This document shows positions 4,880 to 17,645 of a stretch of 64,000 nucleotides of DNA, piece by piece. Numbering within the stretch: the stretch's first letter is position 1; each line of letters starts with the position of its first letter. The notes under the pieces are model-generated. The model was not told the origin of the DNA, ran no database searches, and saw nothing but the letters and a program-made list of their open reading frames with translations. The stretch lies in contig JBBRBD010000005.1 of assembly GCA_038206135.1 (NCBI GenBank), positions 467-64,466 of the forward strand, in the 5' to 3' direction. The DNA is from Patescibacteria group bacterium. GTDB lineage: Bacteria; Patescibacteriota; Microgenomatia; UBA8517. The translations under genes and the position numbers were made by a program.

Positions 4880-5392
4880 TTAAATTCTTACATATCGCAC
4901 AATGGTGAATGGATAGTCATCTTTTTCAGATGCTTTGTAGTCTTTTGACTCTTCAGCTTTCCATTCATTCCAATTGACCTGTGGAAAATACACATCGCCT
5001 TCAATGTGCGCGTGCACATGGGTAATGTGCATAACCTGTGCGAGCGGCAAAAAGTCGTGATACACACGAGCGCCGCCTATGACCATAAGCTTTTGTTCAG
5101 TGCTGGAATGCTTCGTTAAGAAACGGAAAATCCCCATAGCGGACTCAATATTGTCGACCCATGCAGCACCCTCAATTGTTGGATGCTTTTGGGTAGTAAT
5201 TACAATATTCCCTCTATTTGACAGAGGTTTTTGCGGTAGTGATTCCCACGTGTTTCTACCCATGACGACCCACTGCATATTTGTTAACTTGTGGAAATTT
5301 GCTAAATCGGTTTTAATTCTCCACGGAATTTTTCCGTTTCTGCCAATGACCTGTGTGTTGTCTGCAATTGCTGCTACAATTTCGATAATCAT
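4880..5392 (-). CDS. folA: Dihydrofolate reductase.
   Basis: The DHFR signature IVAAIADNTQVIGRNGKIPWRIKTDLANFHKLT is present. The gene is 170 aa and overlaps thyA by 4 nt, which is the usual thyA-folA operon arrangement. Confidence 0.85.
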   Translation of the reverse strand: MIIEIVAAIADNTQVIGRNGKIPWRIKTDLANFHKLTNMQWVVMGRNTWESLPQKPLSNRGNIVITTQKHPTIEGAAWVDNIESAMGIFRFLTKHSSTEQKLMVIGGARVYHDFLPLAQVMHITHVHAHIEGDVYFPQVNWNEWKAEESKDYKASEKDDYPFTIVRYVRI

Positions 5393-6330
5393 ATTGCCAC
5401 TTCTCCTTTTAGTGCGGGATGCGGATTATAACCCAATAAGGTTATGTCTGATAATTCAAATTGATCGATATCTGCTTTCGGCAGAAGTGCAATAGTCGGC
5501 ATTGTTCGAATACCTCTTTTAATTTGAGTCCCGACTTGCTGCACATGATTCATATAAATATGTGCGTCAGTCATATTTATCTTGAGATAGGTGGGTGTTA
5601 GCCCTGTCACTAAACCTACTAAGTGGGTGAGCAGTGCATATGACGCAATGTTAAATGGAACACCAAGAAACAAATCCGCAGAACGCATACTCATTTCACA
5701 AGAAAGTTCTGAGTCCAAGGCATAGAACTGAAATGTGTAATGGCATGGTGGTAACCCGGAAGCGAGCATGCCCGGGATTTCGTCAACATGCCAGGAGTTC
5801 ACAATAATTCTACGTGAATGTGGATCCGTTTTAAGTAGAGCAATGGCTTGTGCGAGCTGGTCAAATGTTTGACCATTCTGTCCCTCCCATGAGCGCCATT
5901 GATGTCCGTATACTGGCCCGAGTTCTCCCCATTCTTCTGCGAATTTTTCGTCATTTTTAATTTTTTGGACGAATGCATCTAGTGGTGCTTTCCAGCCGGG
6001 AACATTCTCTTGCCGATTAGTCGAAAAAGCGGCCCAAATATTCTCGTGGAATGCCCATCGTTTAAACGGCCATTCATTCCAAATGTTAACGTTTTGCAGG
6101 ACGAGTGGCCTAATGTTTGTACTACCTGAAATAAGCCACAAAAGCTCCACTGCAACTGCATGAAAATTCACCCTCTTTGTACTGAGTAATGGGAATCCAT
6201 CTCGCAAGTCACACTTCAAACTTTCACCAAATAATGAATAGGTATTCACTCCAGTGCGGTTTGACTTCACTTGTCCGAAAGTTAGTACTCGATTGAGTAG
6301 ATCCAGATATTGTTTTTCTAAACTGTCCAT
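5389..6330 (-). CDS. thyA: Thymidylate synthase of the ThyA type.
   Basis: It carries the active-site region RRIIVNSWHVDEIPGMLASGLPPCHYTFQFY. The catalytic Cys is in PCH. Confidence 0.9.
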   Translation of the reverse strand: MDSLEKQYLDLLNRVLTFGQVKSNRTGVNTYSLFGESLKCDLRDGFPLLSTKRVNFHAVAVELLWLISGSTNIRPLVLQNVNIWNEWPFKRWAFHENIWAAFSTNRQENVPGWKAPLDAFVQKIKNDEKFAEEWGELGPVYGHQWRSWEGQNGQTFDQLAQAIALLKTDPHSRRIIVNSWHVDEIPGMLASGLPPCHYTFQFYALDSELSCEMSMRSADLFLGVPFNIASYALLTHLVGLVTGLTPTYLKINMTDAHIYMNHVQQVGTQIKRGIRTMPTIALLPKADIDQFELSDITLLGYNPHPALKGEVAI

Positions 6331-6369
6331 ACCAAATCTCCTAAACTAAAATGTGCGAATAGTCCTCAA

Positions 6370-6383
6370 TGATATATATATCA
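6370..6383. promoter_or_regulatory. Perfect 14-bp palindrome TGATATATATATCA in the divergent thyA/tmk promoter region.
   Basis: Read directly from the sequence. It is a candidate operator, or overlapping -10 elements. Confidence 0.35.
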
Positions 6384-6411
6384 TTTAATTTGTGCTATAC
6401 AAGTATCACTA

Positions 6412-7101
6412 ATGCAAAAAGGTTTTTTGATTTCATTTGAAGGGGACGATGGATCTGGAAAGACGACCGCACTTTCACAGGTTGCAAGAATTTTAAATGT
6501 GAAACACAAACTTGATGTGGTCACTTTTCGAGAGCCAGGAGGAACAGAAATAGGAGATGACGCACGGCGTATTGTTCATGATTTTAAAAATATTCCGACA
6601 ATTACAGAAGAATCTGAATTATTGCTGTATTTGGTCTCTCGTGCGCAAAATGTAGCAGAAAACATCCGACCTGCGTTAGAAGATAACAAAATAGTACTTC
6701 TAGATCGGTTTTTGGATAGTTCAATTGCTTATCAAGGGTATGGACGCGGTATTGGGGCAAGTTTAGTGAATAATCTAAATTCGTTTGCAACTAAGGGACT
6801 TGTTCCAGATTTAACAGTTTACTTTGATGTTGAGCCAGAAGTGGCTTCAGAAAGAAGACTATCTTCGAGGATTGCTGGTGGCGAGTGGAATCGCCTTGAT
6901 GCTGAAATGCTTCAGTTCCACCGGGATGTACAGTACGCATATCAAACGCTTCACGCATTTGATACTGAAAATAGATGGGAACGCCTTGATGCGAATAAAA
7001 CTCAGGAGGAAGTTTTGTTTTCTGCTTTGCATTTAGTTGAAAGCAGACTTCAGATGAATGGATTTATAGAAGGGAACACTCCTTCAGTTGAAAGACGTTG
7101 A
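6412..7101 (+). CDS. tmk: Thymidylate kinase.
   Basis: The P-loop ISFEGDDGSGKTT and the Tmk DRF/lid region (LLDRFLDSSIAYQG) are present. Confidence 0.85.
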   Translation: MQKGFLISFEGDDGSGKTTALSQVARILNVKHKLDVVTFREPGGTEIGDDARRIVHDFKNIPTITEESELLLYLVSRAQNVAENIRPALEDNKIVLLDRFLDSSIAYQGYGRGIGASLVNNLNSFATKGLVPDLTVYFDVEPEVASERRLSSRIAGGEWNRLDAEMLQFHRDVQYAYQTLHAFDTENRWERLDANKTQEEVLFSALHLVESRLQMNGFIEGNTPSVERR

Positions 7102-7156
7102 AAACATAAAACGTGATATTATTCTCCAGTTTCAAGATATTAAAGGAGTGACAGAC

Positions 7157-7819
7157 ATGGCATTGCTAGTTGATTGGGAAATACTCGAGAAAAAGAGTGA
7201 AGGCAAAATAATAATTTCGCCGTTTGATAAAAAGCAGCTAAATACGGTGAGTTATGATGTGACACTCGGTGAGAATTATTTTCGCGCGCGCTATGTGAAT
7301 GAATCAAGCGTAATGCCTCGGCATTTCATGCTGTTAAATCCGCACAGTGCGGAAAGCATTAGCGAGCGGTGGAGTAGCCCAAAGATTGCAGAACAAGCAT
7401 CAAGGGTTTTGAATCCATTAGAAATGAGTAGGCACGGCGTCAATGCAACTGACAAAATCATTTTTCTTGCTCCAAATGAGCTTATTTTGGCTCACACTCG
7501 CGAGTTTATCGGGGGGGTCAGTGACGTAACAACAAGTATGCATGCACGTTCCACCGTTGGGCGGTGCGGTTTTTCTGTTTGTATGTGTGCTGGGTTTGGC
7601 GATGTAGGGTACTACAATCGGTGGACCATGGAAATTCATAATAATGCCGAGTATTGGATTGTGTTGACCGTTGGAGATCGTATTGCTCAAATTCATTTTG
7701 AATCAGTGTCTAAGCCCACTGGTTTATATAGCAAAGGTGGACACTATCAAAATACCGCGGATTTAAGACAGTTGAAAAAAAACTGGAAGCCAGAACACAT
7801 GATCCCGAGACCTATTTAA
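7157..7819 (+). CDS. dcd: dCTP deaminase / dUTPase-superfamily protein. The ORF track extends it to 7088.
   Basis: The N-terminus MALLVDWEIL... and SYDVTLGENYF resemble dCTP deaminase (SYDLRLG). An AAAGGAG RBS precedes ATG 7157. Confidence 0.65.
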   Translation: MALLVDWEILEKKSEGKIIISPFDKKQLNTVSYDVTLGENYFRARYVNESSVMPRHFMLLNPHSAESISERWSSPKIAEQASRVLNPLEMSRHGVNATDKIIFLAPNELILAHTREFIGGVSDVTTSMHARSTVGRCGFSVCMCAGFGDVGYYNRWTMEIHNNAEYWIVLTVGDRIAQIHFESVSKPTGLYSKGGHYQNTADLRQLKKNWKPEHMIPRPI

Positions 7820-12042: not shown

Positions 12043-12501
12043 ATGGCAATCGACGCAAAACTAATTTCAAAACTTCGAGAAGAAACAGGCGCTCCTGTTA
12101 TCCGTGTCAAAAAACTTCTTGATGAGCTTAAAGGCGACGACAAAAAAGCACGTGAGATTTTAATGAAAGAAGGCTTTGAAAAAACAGAAAAAAGAGCAGG
12201 ACGTGAAACAGGGCAGGGAAGAATCGTCTCTTACACTCATCACACTGGTAAAGTTGCCTGTTTGATTGAGCTTTTATGCGAAACTGACTTTGTAGCAAAA
12301 AATGATCTTTTTACAGACCTCGCAAAAAATATTGCACTTCAAGTAGTTTCAATGAATCCGAAAGACAATGAAGAACTTTTGAAGCAGGAATTTATCAAAG
12401 AGCCAAGTAAAACTATGCAGGATTTAGTCAAAGAAGTTATCGCAAAAACTGGAGAAAATGTGCAACTTGGTCGCTTCGTTCGCCTTGAAATTGGCAAATA
12501 A
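12043..12501 (+). CDS. tsf: Elongation factor Ts, short form.
   Basis: LISKLREETGAPVIRVKKLL is present. The rpsB-tsf synteny supports the call. Confidence 0.85.
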   Translation: MAIDAKLISKLREETGAPVIRVKKLLDELKGDDKKAREILMKEGFEKTEKRAGRETGQGRIVSYTHHTGKVACLIELLCETDFVAKNDLFTDLAKNIALQVVSMNPKDNEELLKQEFIKEPSKTMQDLVKEVIAKTGENVQLGRFVRLEIGK

Positions 12502-12520
12502 CACCTCATTCCGATATAAT
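12486..12520 (+). promoter_or_regulatory. Sigma70-like promoter P1 (TTGGCA-18-TATAAT) inside the GAAATTGGCAAA motif. It overlaps the tsf stop codon.
   Basis: The sequence is cttGAAATTGGCAAAtaa...cgaTATAAT. The same motif recurs at 13256 and 14029. Confidence 0.5.
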
Positions 12521-12553
12521 CCCCATAGTGTTTTTAATTAAGGAGAATTTGCT

Positions 12554-13216
12554 TTGCAAAATGTAGCAGATGAACTTTTAAGATTTGAGCGTTTGTATAC
12601 TCAGGTGCTTACTGCACGTGCAGGTTCAAGAGGAAAGGGTGAATTTATGAAAGCTCGGAGCAAAGACAAATTGCTGTCAATTGAGCTTATGCATTCGACG
12701 AGCCTCTTGTTTAATCTATTAATAGGGTGCACTCAGTTTTTTCTCTTTCCCGTTGAATTTTACGATGAAGTATTGGCAGCCACTGACTCGCTGTATCGAT
12801 ATCTTCAATATGGTGACCCTGCTGAAATGTTAAGCGTCTCAAAAACATTGAATGAGATTATACCTGGATGTGACCCGATAGATAAAACTCGGATTCGTCT
12901 GTGGTTCTCAACTGCGGATATTCCGCTACAGCGTACATCAAGCGAAGAAAGAGAGTATGTCATAAAGCGAAACGATGTTTACCTGTCCAGTCTATTTGAA
13001 GAGGCTGTGAGAAGCAGTAGTTTTCCTGCGGTGTGGATTGGGTCAGTAGTTGTAAATCCGCTTCCTATGTTAGCGGCAAGCTTTAATCTTCCAGTTTCAA
13101 TGAAAACAATAGAGCCTGTTGTCCTTCGACGGACAAAGTACTATCTGGAGGTTACAGGCCGTGTTGCCGAAAAAACTTTCCTTGGCAGACTTGAGATTCT
13201 CTCGGTGAATGGGTAG
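12554..13216 (+). CDS. Hypothetical protein P1, 220 aa and cytoplasmic. It is a member of a three-gene tandem paralog family.
   Basis: It starts at TTG after an AAGGAG RBS. It shares the motifs LLSIEL... and QFFLFPVEFYDEVL with P3 (QFLFPAKYKELV). Confidence 0.5.
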   Translation: MQNVADELLRFERLYTQVLTARAGSRGKGEFMKARSKDKLLSIELMHSTSLLFNLLIGCTQFFLFPVEFYDEVLAATDSLYRYLQYGDPAEMLSVSKTLNEIIPGCDPIDKTRIRLWFSTADIPLQRTSSEEREYVIKRNDVYLSSLFEEAVRSSSFPAVWIGSVVVNPLPMLAASFNLPVSMKTIEPVVLRRTKYYLEVTGRVAEKTFLGRLEILSVNG

Positions 13217-13224
13217 TACGATTC

Positions 13225-13256
13225 GGGGAGCGCTAATTCGCTCCCCCTTTCTTCTT
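13225..13256 (+). terminator. Rho-independent terminator.
   Basis: GGGGAGCG-ctaatt-CGCTCCCC followed by TTTCTTCTT. Confidence 0.6.
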
Positions 13257-13290
13257 GAAATTGGCTAATAGACAGCTATCTCGCTATAAT
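13256..13290 (+). promoter_or_regulatory. Promoter P2 (TTGGCT-18-TATAAT) within cttGAAATTGGCTAAtag.
   Basis: The first 14 nt are near-identical to the tsf 3' end and promoter P1. Confidence 0.5.
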
Positions 13291-13326
13291 AGGCAACGTT
13301 TTATTTTTTTGTGAGGAGTGTATGTA

Positions 13327-13980
13327 ATGTCTCAGCAATTTGTTTTCGAAGGTGAAGAGGCTACTCTTGTCTTTCCGTCTTTGATAAATCAACAAAGTAC
13401 ATCAACGACACCGGGAGTAGATCCCTATTTGAAAGTAGAAACTATCACACAAAATTGTGTATTAGCAGTATTAAGAGGGGATCTTCGTGCCGATGTCTCT
13501 GTTCGAGAAATGCAATTAATTTCAATTTCAGATCAATATATCCGTCGGGAATACCTATTTGCCCGGCATGCCGTAAGTGATTATTACAAACTGCTAACGT
13601 TTGATCATGAAGGCTTAGTTCGATGGATTGATGACATCGTGGGTCACATTGGAACATCATCTGAAGTTACCGAAAGTATGTATTTTTGGTTTGCGACATT
13701 GGGTCTACCAATTGCTACGACTTGGAAGCATTACGAAGGCTTAATAATCAAGCAACAGAACAAGTTGCGGAATCTGTTATGGAAGAAAGCACCAGTTGAA
13801 ATTCCAAAACCGCTTTCAATGCGTTCGATTCCCATCGAATTACAAAAGATTGCAGATGAAGGAAATTCCATGTTTCACAGGAATACTGATGTGCGCATTC
13901 ATGCAGACATTCTTTTGGGTCAGTTAACAATATATTGGATGTCAAAAGGTATCTATCGTGAGTATCGCGTTCACACCTAA
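13327..13980 (+). CDS. Hypothetical protein P2, 217 aa, a tandem paralog family member. The ORF track extends it to GTG 13318.
   Basis: A GAGGAG RBS lies 8 nt upstream of ATG 13327. It shares weak motifs with P1 and P3 (QLISISDQ..., YLFARHAVSDYYKLL). Confidence 0.45.
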   Translation: MSQQFVFEGEEATLVFPSLINQQSTSTTPGVDPYLKVETITQNCVLAVLRGDLRADVSVREMQLISISDQYIRREYLFARHAVSDYYKLLTFDHEGLVRWIDDIVGHIGTSSEVTESMYFWFATLGLPIATTWKHYEGLIIKQQNKLRNLLWKKAPVEIPKPLSMRSIPIELQKIADEGNSMFHRNTDVRIHADILLGQLTIYWMSKGIYREYRVHT

Positions 13981-13995
13981 TAATATCTGTTAGTT

Positions 13996-14026
13996 AAGGG
14001 GAGCAACACGCTCCCTTTGTTTGTGC
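13996..14026 (+). terminator. Rho-independent terminator.
   Basis: GGGGAGC-aaca-CGCTCCC followed by TTTGTTTGTG. Confidence 0.55.
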
Positions 14027-14028
14027 CA

Positions 14029-14062
14029 TAAAATTGGCAAAAACGCTATGAACAGCTATAAT
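14029..14062 (+). promoter_or_regulatory. Promoter P3 (TTGGCA-17-TATAAT) within ataAAATTGGCAAAaac.
   Basis: This is the third copy of the GAAATTGGCWAA motif. Confidence 0.5.
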
Positions 14063-14096
14063 TCGTCATTCGTTTAAGCTGTAAGGAGCACATTAA

Positions 14097-14798
14097 ATGA
14101 TCAATCGAGAAGCAGAGACAATGGTTGAACTTGCATATTTAATGGGTTTGATAAGGGCGACTAGAAACATTTATCAATCTGGTCATTATTCCTCGAGCCA
14201 ATTGTTGGCTAAAGAAAATGATGGGGAGCTTGAGATTTCGATCACGCTTGGGCGTTTCGAATACAAGTATTACCTTTTATTTGATATGGGTATGCAGTTT
14301 CTATTTCCTGCCAAATATAAGGAGCTTGTATCAACCTCAGCATTAGTGACCCTAATGCCTCAGATATTGTCCGGTACGGTTGTTGAGATTCCGTTGACAC
14401 TACTTGATTCAGTCAAAGTCGAGTTATGTGGTTCTTTTGAGCAATTCATTTTTTTTATTAGTTTTGGGCAGATGCGTCCTTCTCTCGATAAGCATTTGTA
14501 TACCTTAACTATTGAACGGGACTGGCCGAATACGGCAGCGGCACGCGAATTAGGCACTATTTTATTGCCAAGACTTACGTCTGTTATGAAAGACGTCTTT
14601 TTGGACTCACACACTCTAGTTAAACAGCTTGTTTCTGAGCTTAATGAACTGCAGAAGATGAGAGATGATCAAGTGTTGATACAAGTAGGTCCATCCGTAT
14701 CGAACGGCTGTTTCATAGTTCATGTGTCCCAGACTGAATTCCAAACGGTATATCAGTGTTTGGTGAGTAGAGCGACGGTTGAGGACATATCTAACTGA
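14097..14798 (+). CDS. Hypothetical protein P3, 233 aa, a tandem paralog family member.
   Basis: An AAGGAG RBS precedes it. It shares the motifs LEISITLG and QFLFPAKYKELV with P1. Confidence 0.5.
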   Translation: MINREAETMVELAYLMGLIRATRNIYQSGHYSSSQLLAKENDGELEISITLGRFEYKYYLLFDMGMQFLFPAKYKELVSTSALVTLMPQILSGTVVEIPLTLLDSVKVELCGSFEQFIFFISFGQMRPSLDKHLYTLTIERDWPNTAAARELGTILLPRLTSVMKDVFLDSHTLVKQLVSELNELQKMRDDQVLIQVGPSVSNGCFIVHVSQTEFQTVYQCLVSRATVEDISN

Positions 14799-15783
14799 TG
14801 TCTTTTTTCGGGAGCGTGTAATACGCTCCCTTTGTTGTGCCTAGTTTTTGTAAGAAACCTCCATCCGTTAGTCGTTTGATGTCGTTTCTAATGGTGCGTT
14901 TGTTTATGCTTGGAAATCGTCGGGCAATCATATCCACACTTACCATAGTTTGGTCTTTTACAATTTTGACAATCTCAGATCTTCTGGGGAGAAGTGTGTC
15001 TTCTGGAGAAAAATGCTCAGCCTGATGTTGTATTAAACTGACAGCCTTTTGTGAAGCTGCTTTTAGTGCAGTGAGCATGAAGACTATATAATCAGTTACT
15101 TCTTTTTCTGGTTCATCGAGAGACGCATAATATTCGCTCCTATGATTATCTAAATATTCCTCAACAACTGCTAAGTTTTTCATAGCATATCCACCATGCA
15201 TCAACACTTTTTGAAACAACAATCTGCCCGTTCTTCCATTACCATCTAAAAATGGGTGAATTTTTTCGAAGGAATAATGAACAAGCGCTGCCCGAATAGG
15301 AACGAGAGATTCTTTGTCTGAATTTGCAAATTTTAGAAGCCGTATTAAATATTTTTCAGCTTGTTTGGGTGGAGGAGGCATATACACTGCGATTCCAGCC
15401 GAATTAAAAATAGCACTGACTTCGTGCCTTACATGACCTGCTTCTGGGCTTAAACCTTTCATGGTAATTTTATGTAAATTCAAAAGTTCCAAAAGAGTTA
15501 TGTCTTTTTTTTCTCGCTCCCGAAGCCACTCAAGCGCTCTCAATACATTAAACACTTCAGCTTTTTTTTGTGTTGATGAGCCTGGAGTCAATTCATCCAT
15601 CGTGAGTGTACTCCCTTCAATGCGAGCCGAAAAAAGTGAGCTTTGAAGCGTTGTCCTCCGTCTGATATTAGTTTCTATTTCTGGGGGAACAGAAAGAGCA
15701 TTCAGTACGGCTTTTGAGGCTTCAATATCATTTAACAGTTCTGTGATTTCTTTAGTGAGCGTATATTTCGCTGGAAGTAGCAT
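14791..15783 (-). CDS. Fic/DOC (Fido) family protein with an N-terminal inhibitory helix and a C-terminal winged-helix domain.
   Basis: The Fic motif HPFLDGNGRTGR is present. The [ST]xxxE[GN] inhibitory motif appears as SARIEG. The C-terminus carries an HTH-like segment (INKRTIRNDIKRLTDGGFLQK). Confidence 0.85.
   Translation of the reverse strand: MLLPAKYTLTKEITELLNDIEASKAVLNALSVPPEIETNIRRRTTLQSSLFSARIEGSTLTMDELTPGSSTQKKAEVFNVLRALEWLREREKKDITLLELLNLHKITMKGLSPEAGHVRHEVSAIFNSAGIAVYMPPPPKQAEKYLIRLLKFANSDKESLVPIRAALVHYSFEKIHPFLDGNGRTGRLLFQKVLMHGGYAMKNLAVVEEYLDNHRSEYYASLDEPEKEVTDYIVFMLTALKAASQKAVSLIQHQAEHFSPEDTLLPRRSEIVKIVKDQTMVSVDMIARRFPSINKRTIRNDIKRLTDGGFLQKLGTTKGAYYTLPKKDIS
14801..14840. terminator. 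Bidirectional terminator between P3 and the convergent Fic gene.
   Basis: T6 tract, then GGGAGCGT-gtaat-ACGCTCCC, then TTTGTTGTG. Confidence 0.6.
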
Positions 15784-15830
15784 ATGTTGCCAGATAATGT
15801 CAGATATAGGTAGATGTTGTCAAATATTTC
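15784..15830. repeat. Three direct repeats, ATGTTGCCAGATAA / ATGTCAGATATA / ATGTTGTCAAATAT, in the Fic-methyltransferase divergent promoter region.
   Basis: Read directly from the sequence. They are candidate operator sites. Confidence 0.4.
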
Positions 15831-15855
15831 CGAATAGATACTGTATACTTAAGTC

Positions 15856-16656
15856 ATGTACAAGCCAAAAAGCAGATTTAGTAAACATGTCCCCAAGAGA
15901 GCTGTTCCGATGCAGCCGAAGGGGTGGGAAGGAGAAGCAAAACAATACAATGATCTGGTAGGAGAGCGTGGTCACTATTACCATCAGCATGTTGTTATTC
16001 CTAAAAGTTTGGAACTTTTGAATCTTTCTACGGATAGTAGTGTACTCGATTTGGGATGTGGCCAAGGGGTCTTTTCGCGAGTTCTTCCAAAAACTGTTTC
16101 ATATGTCGGTGTAGACGCTTCAAAGTCGTTAATTGATTTTGCAAAAAAGTTTGATGAAAACCCACATCATCGATTTGAAGCTTTAAGCGCAACGCGTCCT
16201 CTAAAAGGTCTTCGTACTGATTTTTCACACGCGGTATGTATTTTGGCTCTTCAAAATATGGAGTATTTTGACACTGCTATAAAAAATGCTTCTGACCACT
16301 TACAAACTGGGGGTTCTTTCTTGATAGTACTCAATCACCCAATGTTTCGAATTCCGCGCCAAAGCGGTTGGGGAGAACCTATTCAGGGAATTCAAACACG
16401 CTGGATAAATAAATATATGAGCCACTTAAAAATTCCTATCAACATGCACCCGGGAATGAAAAAAGAAGCAGTAACCCTCAGTTATCACATGCCGCTACCT
16501 AGCTATGTTTCAAGCTTGCGAAAGCATGGCTTTGTAATTGCACAACTGGAGGAATGGAGTTCAAACAAAGAAAGCAAAGGTAAAAATGCAAAAGCCGAAA
16601 ACATCGCAAGAACAGAATTTCCATTATTTATGGCCATTTTAGCCAAAAAACAGTAA
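15856..16656 (+). CDS. Class I SAM-dependent methyltransferase.
   Basis: Motif I is VLDLGCGQGVFSRVL. The start is uncertain, with an alternative ATG at 15910. Confidence 0.7.
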   Translation: MYKPKSRFSKHVPKRAVPMQPKGWEGEAKQYNDLVGERGHYYHQHVVIPKSLELLNLSTDSSVLDLGCGQGVFSRVLPKTVSYVGVDASKSLIDFAKKFDENPHHRFEALSATRPLKGLRTDFSHAVCILALQNMEYFDTAIKNASDHLQTGGSFLIVLNHPMFRIPRQSGWGEPIQGIQTRWINKYMSHLKIPINMHPGMKKEAVTLSYHMPLPSYVSSLRKHGFVIAQLEEWSSNKESKGKNAKAENIARTEFPLFMAILAKKQ

Positions 16657-16670
16657 TTTTAGTTCTGTTG

Positions 16671-16687
16671 CTTGAATTGAATTCAAG
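16671..16687. other. Perfect inverted repeat CTTGAATT-g-AATTCAAG followed by ATTTTTAG.
   Basis: Read directly from the sequence. It is a weak, AT-rich terminator candidate or an operator. Confidence 0.3.
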
Positions 16688-16710
16688 ATTTTTAGTGGAG
16701 GAGGGAAATA

Positions 16711-17031
16711 ATGAGCAGAGATATAGTCTTTTTGTTAATGGTTCTTGGCTTTCTTTCAACCATCATGCTTTTTTTTAGATTGATGGGAGTACCACGCAAT
16801 AAGTGGTCCTTTGTGGATATTTTGAGCAATAAAACGCCATTGTTAGTTTTAGGACTCGGTTCAACATCTTGTATTATTGTGGGTATCTATTTAGCAAAGA
16901 AGCCGACAGGTATTTCAATTCCAGAAGATGCTATTCGGATATTGGGGATTATTATCTTTTTTGTTTTGTTACCATTTCTATCAAGTGTCTTCTTTGTGAT
17001 GAATCTTCGATGTTCTCCGAAAAGAGAGTAG
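16711..17031 (+). CDS. Hypothetical small membrane protein with three TM helices.
   Basis: A strong GGAGGAGGG RBS precedes the ATG. Confidence 0.45.
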   Translation: MSRDIVFLLMVLGFLSTIMLFFRLMGVPRNKWSFVDILSNKTPLLVLGLGSTSCIIVGIYLAKKPTGISIPEDAIRILGIIIFFVLLPFLSSVFFVMNLRCSPKRE

Positions 17032-17090
17032 TGCTCAAGAATATGGGCGGTGTAGTGCCGCCCTTTTTATATGCTATACTTGAGAAACAA

Positions 17091-17645
17091 ATGGATGAGC
17101 CGCAACTTCGCACTTCAATGCAAAAAGTTCTTGAGAATTTAACTCGTGAACTATCTGGTATACGTACAGGCCGTGCTTCTGCCTCTCTCGTATCTGATGT
17201 TATGGTAACGGTGTATGGAGGGACTCAGCATTTGCGAGTTATGGAAACTGCCTCAATTACAGTTCCTGAACCAACTCAAATTCTTATCGAACCCTGGGAC
17301 AAATCAATTATTGGCGAAATCCGACAAGGGATACTTGCCGCGAACATTGGTTTAAATCCGACCATCGATACTGATAAATTACGAATTTCTTTGCCTCCGC
17401 TTACGACTGAAGACCGAGAGAAGTATGTGAAACTTTTACATGTGAAGCTTGAAGAGTCTCGAGTTTCTATGCGTCAATCAAGAGGTGACACCATGCAGAA
17501 AATAAAAAAAGCATTTGAAGCGAAAGAGATTACTGAAGACGACAAATTTGCAGATGAGAAAAAGACGCAAGAAATCACAGATGAGTTTATTAAAAAGATT
17601 GAAGAAATGGGTGACAAAAAGACAGAAGAACTTCGCACTGTTTAA
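17091..17645 (+). CDS. frr: Ribosome recycling factor. The ORF track's 16869 start is a spurious N-terminal extension.
   Basis: MDEPQLRTSMQKVLENLTRELSGIRTGRASASL matches the Frr N-terminus. The length is 184 aa. Confidence 0.8.
   Translation: MDEPQLRTSMQKVLENLTRELSGIRTGRASASLVSDVMVTVYGGTQHLRVMETASITVPEPTQILIEPWDKSIIGEIRQGILAANIGLNPTIDTDKLRISLPPLTTEDREKYVKLLHVKLEESRVSMRQSRGDTMQKIKKAFEAKEITEDDKFADEKKTQEITDEFIKKIEEMGDKKTEELRTV

Follow-up and report, generated by a model that had tools for sequence, protein, structure and literature searches.

An array of three orphan gene cassettes between tsf and a convergent Fic gene in a Patescibacteria genome: a hot spot of gene gain and loss

Tandem amplification of genes by unequal crossing-over between short repeats, followed by the divergence or loss of the resulting paralogs, is part of the general dynamics of bacterial genomes. 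Another kind of compact genetic unit is known from the genomics of lambdoid phages: the moron, an autonomous set of promoter, gene and terminator lodged between two genes. Here we describe a locus that recalls both, found in a stretch of 64,000 nucleotides (nt) from a Patescibacteria group bacterium (hereafter, the window). On the 3′ side of tsf lie three head-to-tail open reading frames (ORFs) on the plus strand, P1, P2 and P3, which run up to a convergent gene of the Fic family. The explanation that we favour, and regard as reasonably probable, is that unequal exchange between the 3′ ends of tsf and Fic turned one dispensable orphan gene into an array, that the copies diverged fast, and that cassettes were lost through the same repeats. 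The locus is a real hot spot of gene gain and loss, rather than the diversifying-selection or Fic-modulator system first proposed for it in a note drawn from the DNA letters alone (the original prediction). It opens no new mechanism and solves no standing question. It illustrates how quickly orphan proteins pass beyond the reach of sequence-based homology detection.

Cassette anatomy and chimeric junctions

The array follows tsf (12043..12501, plus strand), which encodes a short EF-Ts of 152 aa (Pfam EF_TS, 2.2e-19). The three orphan proteins are encoded on the same strand: P1 (12554..13216; 220 aa, with a TTG start and the Shine-Dalgarno site AAGGAG at 12540-12545), P2 (13327..13980; 217 aa, with GAGGAG at 13313-13318) and P3 (14097..14798; 233 aa, with AAGGAG at 14083-14088). 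The distance from Shine-Dalgarno site to start codon is 7-8 nt in all three. The Fic gene (14791..15783, minus strand) encodes 330 aa, including a C-terminal winged-helix helix-turn-helix (HTH) domain (Pfam Fic, 4.4e-20; HTH_DeoR, 1.7e-5), and its 3′ end overlaps that of P3 by 8 nt. When scored against the codon usage of the window, the annotated frame is the best of the six for P1, P2 and P3, and no transmembrane segment or signal peptide is evident in these proteins. The three-cassette structure is reproduced in an independent Logan assembly of the window organism (SRR19962010). Over 7.7 kb, a single difference separates the two assemblies, C against T at position 16498, inside the neighbouring methyltransferase gene.

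Promoter-like sites lie ahead of the three ORFs on the plus strand, at 12491..12520 (TTGGCA-18-TATAAT, 11/12 consensus matches), 13261..13290 (TTGGCT-18-TATAAT) and 14034..14062 (TTGGCA-17-TATAAT), and their consensus scores are 10-11/12. Each cassette ends, again on the plus strand, at a GGGAGC..GCTCCC hairpin that is followed by a T-rich tail and has a folding energy of -15 to -17 kcal/mol. Hairpin 1 is found at 13225..13246 (GGGGAGCG-ctaatt-CGCTCCCC and then CTTTCTTCTT; -17.3 kcal/mol), hairpin 2 at 13996..14018 (AAGGGGAGC-aacac-GCTCCCTT and then TGTTTGTGCC; -15.4 kcal/mol) and hairpin 3 at 14810..14830 (GGGAGCG-tgtaata-CGCTCCC). Both kinds of signal are specific to the array: GGGAGC-N3-12-GCTCCC and AATTGGCW-N16-19-TATAAT each have exactly 3 matches in the 64 kb, all of them at the cassettes, against 0.01 expected, and for neither motif were 3 matches reached in any of 100 shuffles. 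The anatomy given in the original prediction, with ORFs of 220, 217 and 233 aa after tsf and a promoter, a Shine-Dalgarno site and a hairpin for each, agrees with these coordinates and motif scans. Neither tRNA genes nor Rfam families at gathering score occur in the whole window (positions 1-64000).

A 22-nt direct repeat, TTCGCCTTGAAATTGGCAAATA, recurs at the unit boundaries, its starts lying 770 and 773 nt apart. Its first copy (12479..12500, plus strand) corresponds to the last 7 tsf codons plus the stop, encoding ..RLEIGK and the end of the protein, and carries the -35 box of promoter 1. The second copy (13249..13270, plus strand) is 86% identical to the first and retains the position of the stop codon (GGCTAATAG), and the third (14022..14043, plus strand) is 77% identical to the first. 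The start codons of P1, P2 and P3 are placed 75, 78 and 75 nt past the start of the repeat.

The two internal spacers are chimeras, in which a hairpin segment resembling the Fic 3′ end is followed by a segment resembling the tsf 3′ end. In the P2-P3 spacer (IG2), 27 of 33 positions agree with the Fic 3′ end (GGGAGC..ACGCTCCCTTTGTTTGTGCC; 0/2000 shuffles as good) and 32 of 43 overall with the tsf 3′ end (ATAAAATTGGCAAA; 2/2000). In the P1-P2 spacer (IG1), the agreement is 21 of 25 with the Fic 3′ end (7/2000) and, through to TATAAT, 31 of 38 with the tsf 3′ end together with IG0 (0/2000), so that all four alignments beat at least 99.6% of the shuffles. Because IG1 and IG2 match both the Fic and the tsf 3′ ends, the internal junctions join the distal to the proximal end of the unit. 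Such end-of-unit/start-of-unit junctions are what tandem duplication by unequal recombination classically leaves behind, and the duplicated segment would have run from within the last tsf codons to within the last Fic codons. The earlier claim that the units had been duplicated together with their regulatory DNA is borne out by the junction repeats, unique in the window, and by the IG1 and IG2 chimeras. A microhomology between the tsf and Fic 3′ ends was also considered as the original crossover site and was rejected: it comprises 37 of 58 positions, a match equalled by 185 of 3000 shuffles, and it is absent in other lineages.

Unlike the two internal hairpins, the third is not intergenic. Its letters belong to the Fic coding sequence, where they specify GAYYTLP and end 17 nt short of the stop codon. 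In the direction of Fic, GAAAAAAG comes next, an A-run rather than a U-run, and the hairpin therefore cannot be the terminator of Fic itself. The bidirectional terminator, shared with Fic, that had been proposed for this site is thus contradicted both by its place in the Fic coding sequence and by the A-run.

The tsf-Fic interval in related lineages

The same gene order, folD-rpsB-tsf-[X]-Fic(-)-methyltransferase-frr-M50, is common to the window (lineage W) and to four further lineages (A to D). In W, represented by the window and by Logan SRR19962010, X is P1-P2-P3. Lineage A (L082-L086 and L102, including GCA_021824385.1 and GCA_021840185.1) has one P2-type gene of 213 aa, which overlaps the Fic end by 8 nt, like P3 in W. 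In lineage B (L087, a 773-nt contig) a P3-type gene adjoins Fic, and lineage C (L090 and L096-L101, including a Joint Genome Institute (JGI) contig of 941,859 nt) has one P3-type gene of 243 aa. In lineage D (L103, Logan ERR2832473) X is nothing: 53 nt lead from the tsf stop to the Fic stop (2398-2453 of L103), and this spacer keeps remnants of the promoter region (TTCCTCTTTTT.. and AAAATTGG). As for the sampling, the exact tsf and Fic proteins of the window gave matches from the same sample only, and the 90% clusters of the flanking proteins gave short contigs only, except for lineage D and a second lineage A strain. By these gene contents, the tsf-Fic interval is a dispensable locus of variable copy number (0, 1 or 3 cassettes) and not the seat of a core function.

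The hairpin in the Fic 3′ end is common to lineages A, B and C, each with one cassette and one hairpin (14810-14830 in the window, 10652-10672 in L082, 526-546 in L087 and 9043-9063 in L090). Its stem is GGGAGCG/CGCTCCC in W, B and C, versus GGGCGCA/TGCGCCC in lineage A, where two stem pairs have undergone compensatory changes, from A-T to C-G and from G-C to A-T. These pairs were read directly from the sequences; the RNAalifold covariation table is muddled by differences in loop length. In the cassette-free lineage D the hairpin has decayed to GAGTGAGAATAGTATGCCCCC, which is consistent with a hairpin that serves the cassette and not Fic. The Fic-end hairpin is a structural element kept within the coding sequence of a protein, on the antisense strand, and hairpin 3 is the template of hairpins 1 and 2.

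Homologs of the cassette proteins are few. When 1.84 billion representatives were searched exhaustively by phmmer with P1-P3 joined end to end, the only relatives recovered were P0004 (213 aa, lineage A), about 31-32% identical to P2 (E 3.6e-20), and P0005 (164 aa, cut by the contig end, lineage B), about 31-32% identical to P3 (E 1.5e-13); P1 had only its self match in this set, and no cassette-protein homolog outside the tsf-Fic locus was found there. The protein of lineage C, C1/P0007 (243 aa), was found via synteny; its identity is 26% to P0005 (E ~1e-5 against a database of six sequences) and, over 232 collinear residues, 24.6% to P3 (E 0.01-0.06). In a k-mer-indexed search of 5.8 billion proteins P1, P2 and P3 were orphans, P1 again matching only itself. 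With tblastn, P3 found nothing in 50,697 phage records, and all the family members together revealed no further copy or frame-shifted relic in the window. Sequence searches of Pfam, NCBIfam, PADLOC, PHROG and PDB gave no match for P1-P3, in line with the failure of the original prediction to recognise a known domain in any of them. At E<=1, PADLOC and PHROG gave no match for P1, P2, P3 and P0005, and P0004 had no PADLOC match and one non-significant PHROG match (phrog_32818, E=0.14). A full-text literature search found nothing on this locus. Together, these searches define a new orphan family that has a P2-type and a P3-type branch and is so far known from this one locus of a small clade only.

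Compared with W, the flanking proteins are 81-86% identical in A, 70-77% in C and 79-89% in D, which makes lineage C the outgroup, and the P3 type was probably the older occupant of the tsf-Fic interval. Since W has both types, A only the P2 type, and B and C the P3 type, an ancestral array of at least two cassettes followed by differential loss is the simplest history. As had been expected for a family of this kind, the set of three genes does not recur at ordinary conservation in the related genomes. These have 0 or 1 cassette, and the positional orthologs are 25-32% identical versus 72-91% for the flanks.

Synonymous sites are saturated between all lineages in all genes, with proportions of synonymous differences (pS) of 0.62-0.86, so the ratio of non-synonymous to synonymous divergence (dN/dS) is undefined. 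The dN of the cassette orthologs is 0.75-1.04, versus 0.10-0.20 for tsf, rpsB, Fic, the methyltransferase and frr, and their non-synonymous rate is thus 5-8 times that of the flanks. Relaxed constraint would also yield such an excess. A comparable divergence between W and A occurs nearby in tmk (25% identical), orf99 (31%), DHFR (39%) and orf131 (40%), and among lineage A strains of 99.75-100% DNA identity the substitutions number 0 in the cassette gene, 1 in Fic and 10 in M50. Because ORF length and conserved blocks are kept between the cassette orthologs, some purifying selection acts on these genes. Weak constraint and an old duplication fit the data at least as well as the diversifying selection that had been proposed.

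Set against positions 12043-17645 of the window, distant loci of the candidate phyla radiation (CPR; L002-L008) have, among the matches listed, tsf followed by frr and an M50 protease within 250-600 nt; the best relative in the tsf scan of genome contigs, among the matches listed, is 50% identical. Given this arrangement in distant CPR, the cassettes, Fic, the methyltransferase and a small membrane ORF would form a clade-specific insertion. The last of these is a hydrophobic ORF of 106 aa between the methyltransferase and frr (16711-17031, plus strand); lineages A and D have at this position a 101-aa ORF without detectable similarity, and lineage C has none there. It is another fast-changing small gene within the tsf-frr insertion.

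A separate observation concerns the thymidylate block (4880-7819 in the window, 2889-5700 in L082), in which tmk is 25%, DHFR 39%, thyA 52% and dcd 60% identical between W and A, in contrast to 73-86% for most neighbouring proteins. The contrast hints that genes of the DHFR-thyA-tmk-dcd block were replaced or that the block evolves very fast.

History of the array

The favoured history would start from one dispensable orphan gene between tsf and the convergent Fic gene in a CPR (Patescibacteria-like) clade. The 3′ ends of tsf and Fic would then have recombined unequally, giving rise to the three-cassette array of the window genome. The left half of each junction, a copy of the last Fic codons, would read on the plus strand as a GGGAGCG/CGCTCCC hairpin with a U-rich tail and end the cassette transcript, and the right half, a copy of the last tsf codons, would supply the TTGGCA -35 box 17-18 nt ahead of TATAAT. 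Because the junctions copy the Fic and tsf ends, each new copy would have had a promoter, a Shine-Dalgarno site and a terminator of its own from the start. The junction repeats would also permit the precise loss of a cassette, which would account for the relatives that have only one gene, of the P2 type or of the P3 type, or lack it altogether. Finally, the coding parts, encoding weakly constrained soluble proteins, would have moved so far apart that P1 and P2 are hardly recognisable as related, and P2 and P3 not at all.

As regards the common ancestry of the three proteins, stated in the original prediction, only P1-P2 gives a significant signal; the P1-P3 relation is marginal and P2-P3 gives none. 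BLASTP aligns P1 116-151 with P2 120-155 (E 0.009, for a single comparison) and finds no match for P1-P3 or P2-P3, and shuffles of an unbanded Smith-Waterman alignment gave only a borderline signal for P1-P2. As the units are equal in length, we used a banded Smith-Waterman test that admits near-diagonal alignments only (offset <=12) and is calibrated with column shuffles. In this test, P1-P2 reached a z of 4.8, with 1 of 400 shuffles as good, and P1 against a P2+P0004 profile a z of 5.9, with none of 400. For P1-P3, 25 of 400 shuffles were as good, and for P1 against the P3 profile 9 of 400, which corresponds to p~0.02-0.06 and a weak collinearity, compared with p<=0.003 for P1-P2. With small families, hhalign gave E 0.011-0.028 for P1 against the P2 family and E 0.2-0.26 for P1 against the P3 family, the values across the family comparisons ranging over 0.011-0.47.

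The significant block joins P1 114-151 to P2 118-155 (LWFSTADIP / FWFATLGLP / FWLATLGLP) and coincides, at an equivalent position, with the best-conserved block of the P2 family. It was not on the list of short shared motifs from which common ancestry had been argued, and those motifs have no statistical significance alone. Low-confidence secondary-structure strings are parallel in P1 and P2 (helices at ~67-86, 89-109, 130-153 and 168-181, then a C-terminal beta hairpin), which is a weak hint, and the string of P3 differs from both. Taken together, these comparisons argue weakly for protein paralogy of P1-P3; a single ancestral gene for all three cassettes is what we infer.

Several observations weigh against an origin of the array by amplification and divergence of one gene. 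P2 and P3 give no signal in the banded test and nothing between their families in hhalign. In a diagonal scan of the DNA, the coding parts on the 770-nt diagonal have random-level identity, with no similarity left. AlphaFold2 reached a predicted local distance difference test (pLDDT) value of 31.7 for the concatenated P1+P2+P3 and of 37.3 for the P2+P0004 alignment, values too low for a comparison of folds, with only 2-3 homologs per type. The lineages compared were five (W, A, B, C and D), two of them on short contigs, and the activity of the promoters and terminators, and with it the transcriptional autonomy of each predicted cassette, is something that we infer from motifs and folding energies. 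The codon usage is atypical as well: the log-likelihood ratio (LLR) per codon is 0.13, 0.14 and 0.075 for P1, P2 and P3, versus 0.265 +/- 0.067 in 31 reference genes, and the GC content at third codon positions (GC3) is 0.33-0.41, raised with respect to 0.30 +/- 0.04, values that are compatible with a foreign origin too. Moreover, the junctions are still 70-86% identical, with one and the same stem sequence, next to randomised coding parts; such a contrast requires that the signals be under selection, that gene conversion be at work or that the array be young. In addition, the leaders after the -10 box do not co-segregate with the coding type across lineages. The leader of lineage A, TATAATTCTTCATTCGTT (L082, 9962-9980), precedes a P2-type coding part and matches the IG2 leader of the window, TATAATTCGTCATTCGTT (14057-14075), which belongs to P3, at 11 of 12 positions; that of lineage C, TATAATTACCCCATCAGT (L090, 8244-8262), resembles the IG0 leader of the window, TATAATCCCCATAGTGT (12515-12540).

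Junctions that outconserve the coding parts, and leaders that do not co-segregate with them, leave room for gene conversion or for a recent stacking of old alleles. Under the second option P1, P2 and P3 would be old divergent alleles of the tsf-Fic interval, segregating among related strains and brought together by recent unequal or illegitimate recombination between chromosomes with different alleles, so that a young array would carry an older coding divergence. Beyond the conservation of the junctions, this would fit with the identity of all the stems to the window Fic 3′ end, when the orthologous stem of lineage A has changed at two pairs, and with the window-specific GTGCC that IG2 shares with the Fic end of the window; the P2 type and the P3 type are also, each of them, the sole gene of the locus in different lineages. 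However, the shared derived state of the junctions rests on one site, and the leaders do not travel with the coding type. No strain with a single P1-type cassette was found among the five lineages, and these are separated by synonymous saturation and are not exchanging populations as far as is visible. We consider the stacking of alleles unlikely.

The lack of detectable similarity between P2 and P3, together with the atypical GC3 and codon usage, also speaks for a serial capture of three unrelated genes at a hot spot, either integron-like or by insertion at the tsf 3′ end, with the junction repeat as an attachment site; integrative elements often take in the end of a conserved gene, and the boundary repeat does include such a 3′ end. 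Yet the similarity of P1 and P2 is significant, every cassette comes with a promoter, the unit length is nearly constant (770/773 nt), and the searches of 1.84 billion representatives and of phage records yielded no cassette homologs elsewhere. For ~12 kb to either side the neighbours are housekeeping genes, with no integrase, recombinase or transposase among them. The Pfam-annotated ORFs around the array and at the syntenic loci are housekeeping genes, Fic and the methyltransferase only, and no IntI tyrosine recombinase or attI was found by Pfam annotation of the window ORFs from position 16 to ~22.9 kb and of the syntenic loci. The attC sites of integrons are imperfect palindromes of 57-141 nt with a GTTRRRY core; GTTRRRY and its complement are absent from every junction, and the hairpins, with perfect stems and 17-22 nt, are far shorter. 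Serial capture is, in our view, very improbable.

Returning to the amplification of a dispensable gene, two functional readings can be attached to it, both with low confidence. Tentatively, the cassettes may encode an accessory protein involved in conflict or host interaction; just as tentatively, they may encode a weakly constrained orphan without any such role. The remaining weight goes to other roles. A bolder proposal is that of a self-propagating expression module, in which each unequal crossover makes or deletes an autonomous gene and an episymbiotic CPR bacterium would thereby enlarge, shrink and diversify a conflict or host-interaction family (immunity, anti-defence or effector proteins). 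We hold this proposal to be improbable; in it, convergent transcription into Fic might be a regulatory side effect.

The Fic neighbour and the closest known systems

The position of the array also invited the idea, put forward in the original prediction, that P1-P3 are functional partners of Fic, be it as modulators, antitoxin-like inhibitors or targets. The convergent 3′-end neighbourhood is indeed kept in W, A, B and C, with the 8-nt overlap in W and A, and the terminator is embedded in the coding end of Fic, so that cassette transcription enters the gene and interference is possible. However, the window Fic combines its active site (HPFLDGNGRTGR) with an N-terminal inhibitory motif of its own, SARIEG, and lineage D keeps an intact Fic of 329 aa, 91% identical to that of lineage A, without a cassette. 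A scan for the conserved Fic-inhibitory motif (S/T)xxxE(G/N) matched only P2 (TFDHEG); the match is not kept in its ortholog P0004, and none was found in P1, P3, P0005 or C1. Moreover, the cassette genes are convergent and not co-transcribed with Fic, and Fic is 73-91% conserved between lineages versus 25-32% for the supposed partner. A functional partnership is thus quite improbable: the idea is at odds with a lineage D that keeps Fic without a cassette, with the SARIEG within Fic and with a hairpin that lies inside its coding sequence. The association of cassettes and Fic is positional only, and transcription of the cassettes into the Fic 3′ end could at most interfere with the expression of this gene.

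The class I Fic modules (FicT/FicA, VbhT/VbhA) resemble the locus in having a Fic gene that adjoins a small gene without known domains. They differ in that the Fic of the window has its own N-terminal inhibitory motif, as in class II Fic, and in that the cassette genes are convergent, code for ~220 aa, have no conserved inhibitory motif and are absent from the Fic-bearing lineage D. The orphan immunity arrays of polymorphic toxins, such as those of contact-dependent inhibition (CDI), Rhs and type VI secretion system (T6SS) loci, are likewise tandems of small, diverged, strain-variable cytoplasmic proteins without domains, although no toxin gene or fragment lies near this locus and PADLOC gives no match. 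With integron arrays it shares single-gene units that end in an inverted repeat, and a number and content of cassettes that vary between relatives, but its cassettes have their own promoters, a constant unit length and no attC-like site. On these features we rejected its membership in the integrons, in the class I Fic toxin-antitoxin modules and in the known defence systems.

The units of the locus, like phage morons, consist of a single ORF with a sigma-70-type promoter and a hairpin terminator between conserved genes, and they are dispensable and somewhat off their surroundings in composition. Unlike morons, they are not in a prophage, match no phage family and were arrayed by duplication, and their regulatory parts come from the neighbouring chromosomal genes rather than from an imported element.

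The locus behaves like an ordinary tandem gene amplification, with which it has in common head-to-tail units of equal length, junctions that join unit ends, a copy number of 0, 1 or 3, and unit-boundary repeats that can drive further gain and loss. It departs from the usual case in coding parts so diverged that their homology is barely or not provable, and in boundaries that fall inside two flanking coding sequences, which serve as promoter and terminator of each copy. The locus would thus offer a natural example of a tandem duplication that creates autonomous genes, each taking its -35 box from codons of the essential tsf and its terminator from codons of the convergent Fic, with the same junction repeats as drivers of the change in copy number (0, 1, 3) among related lineages.

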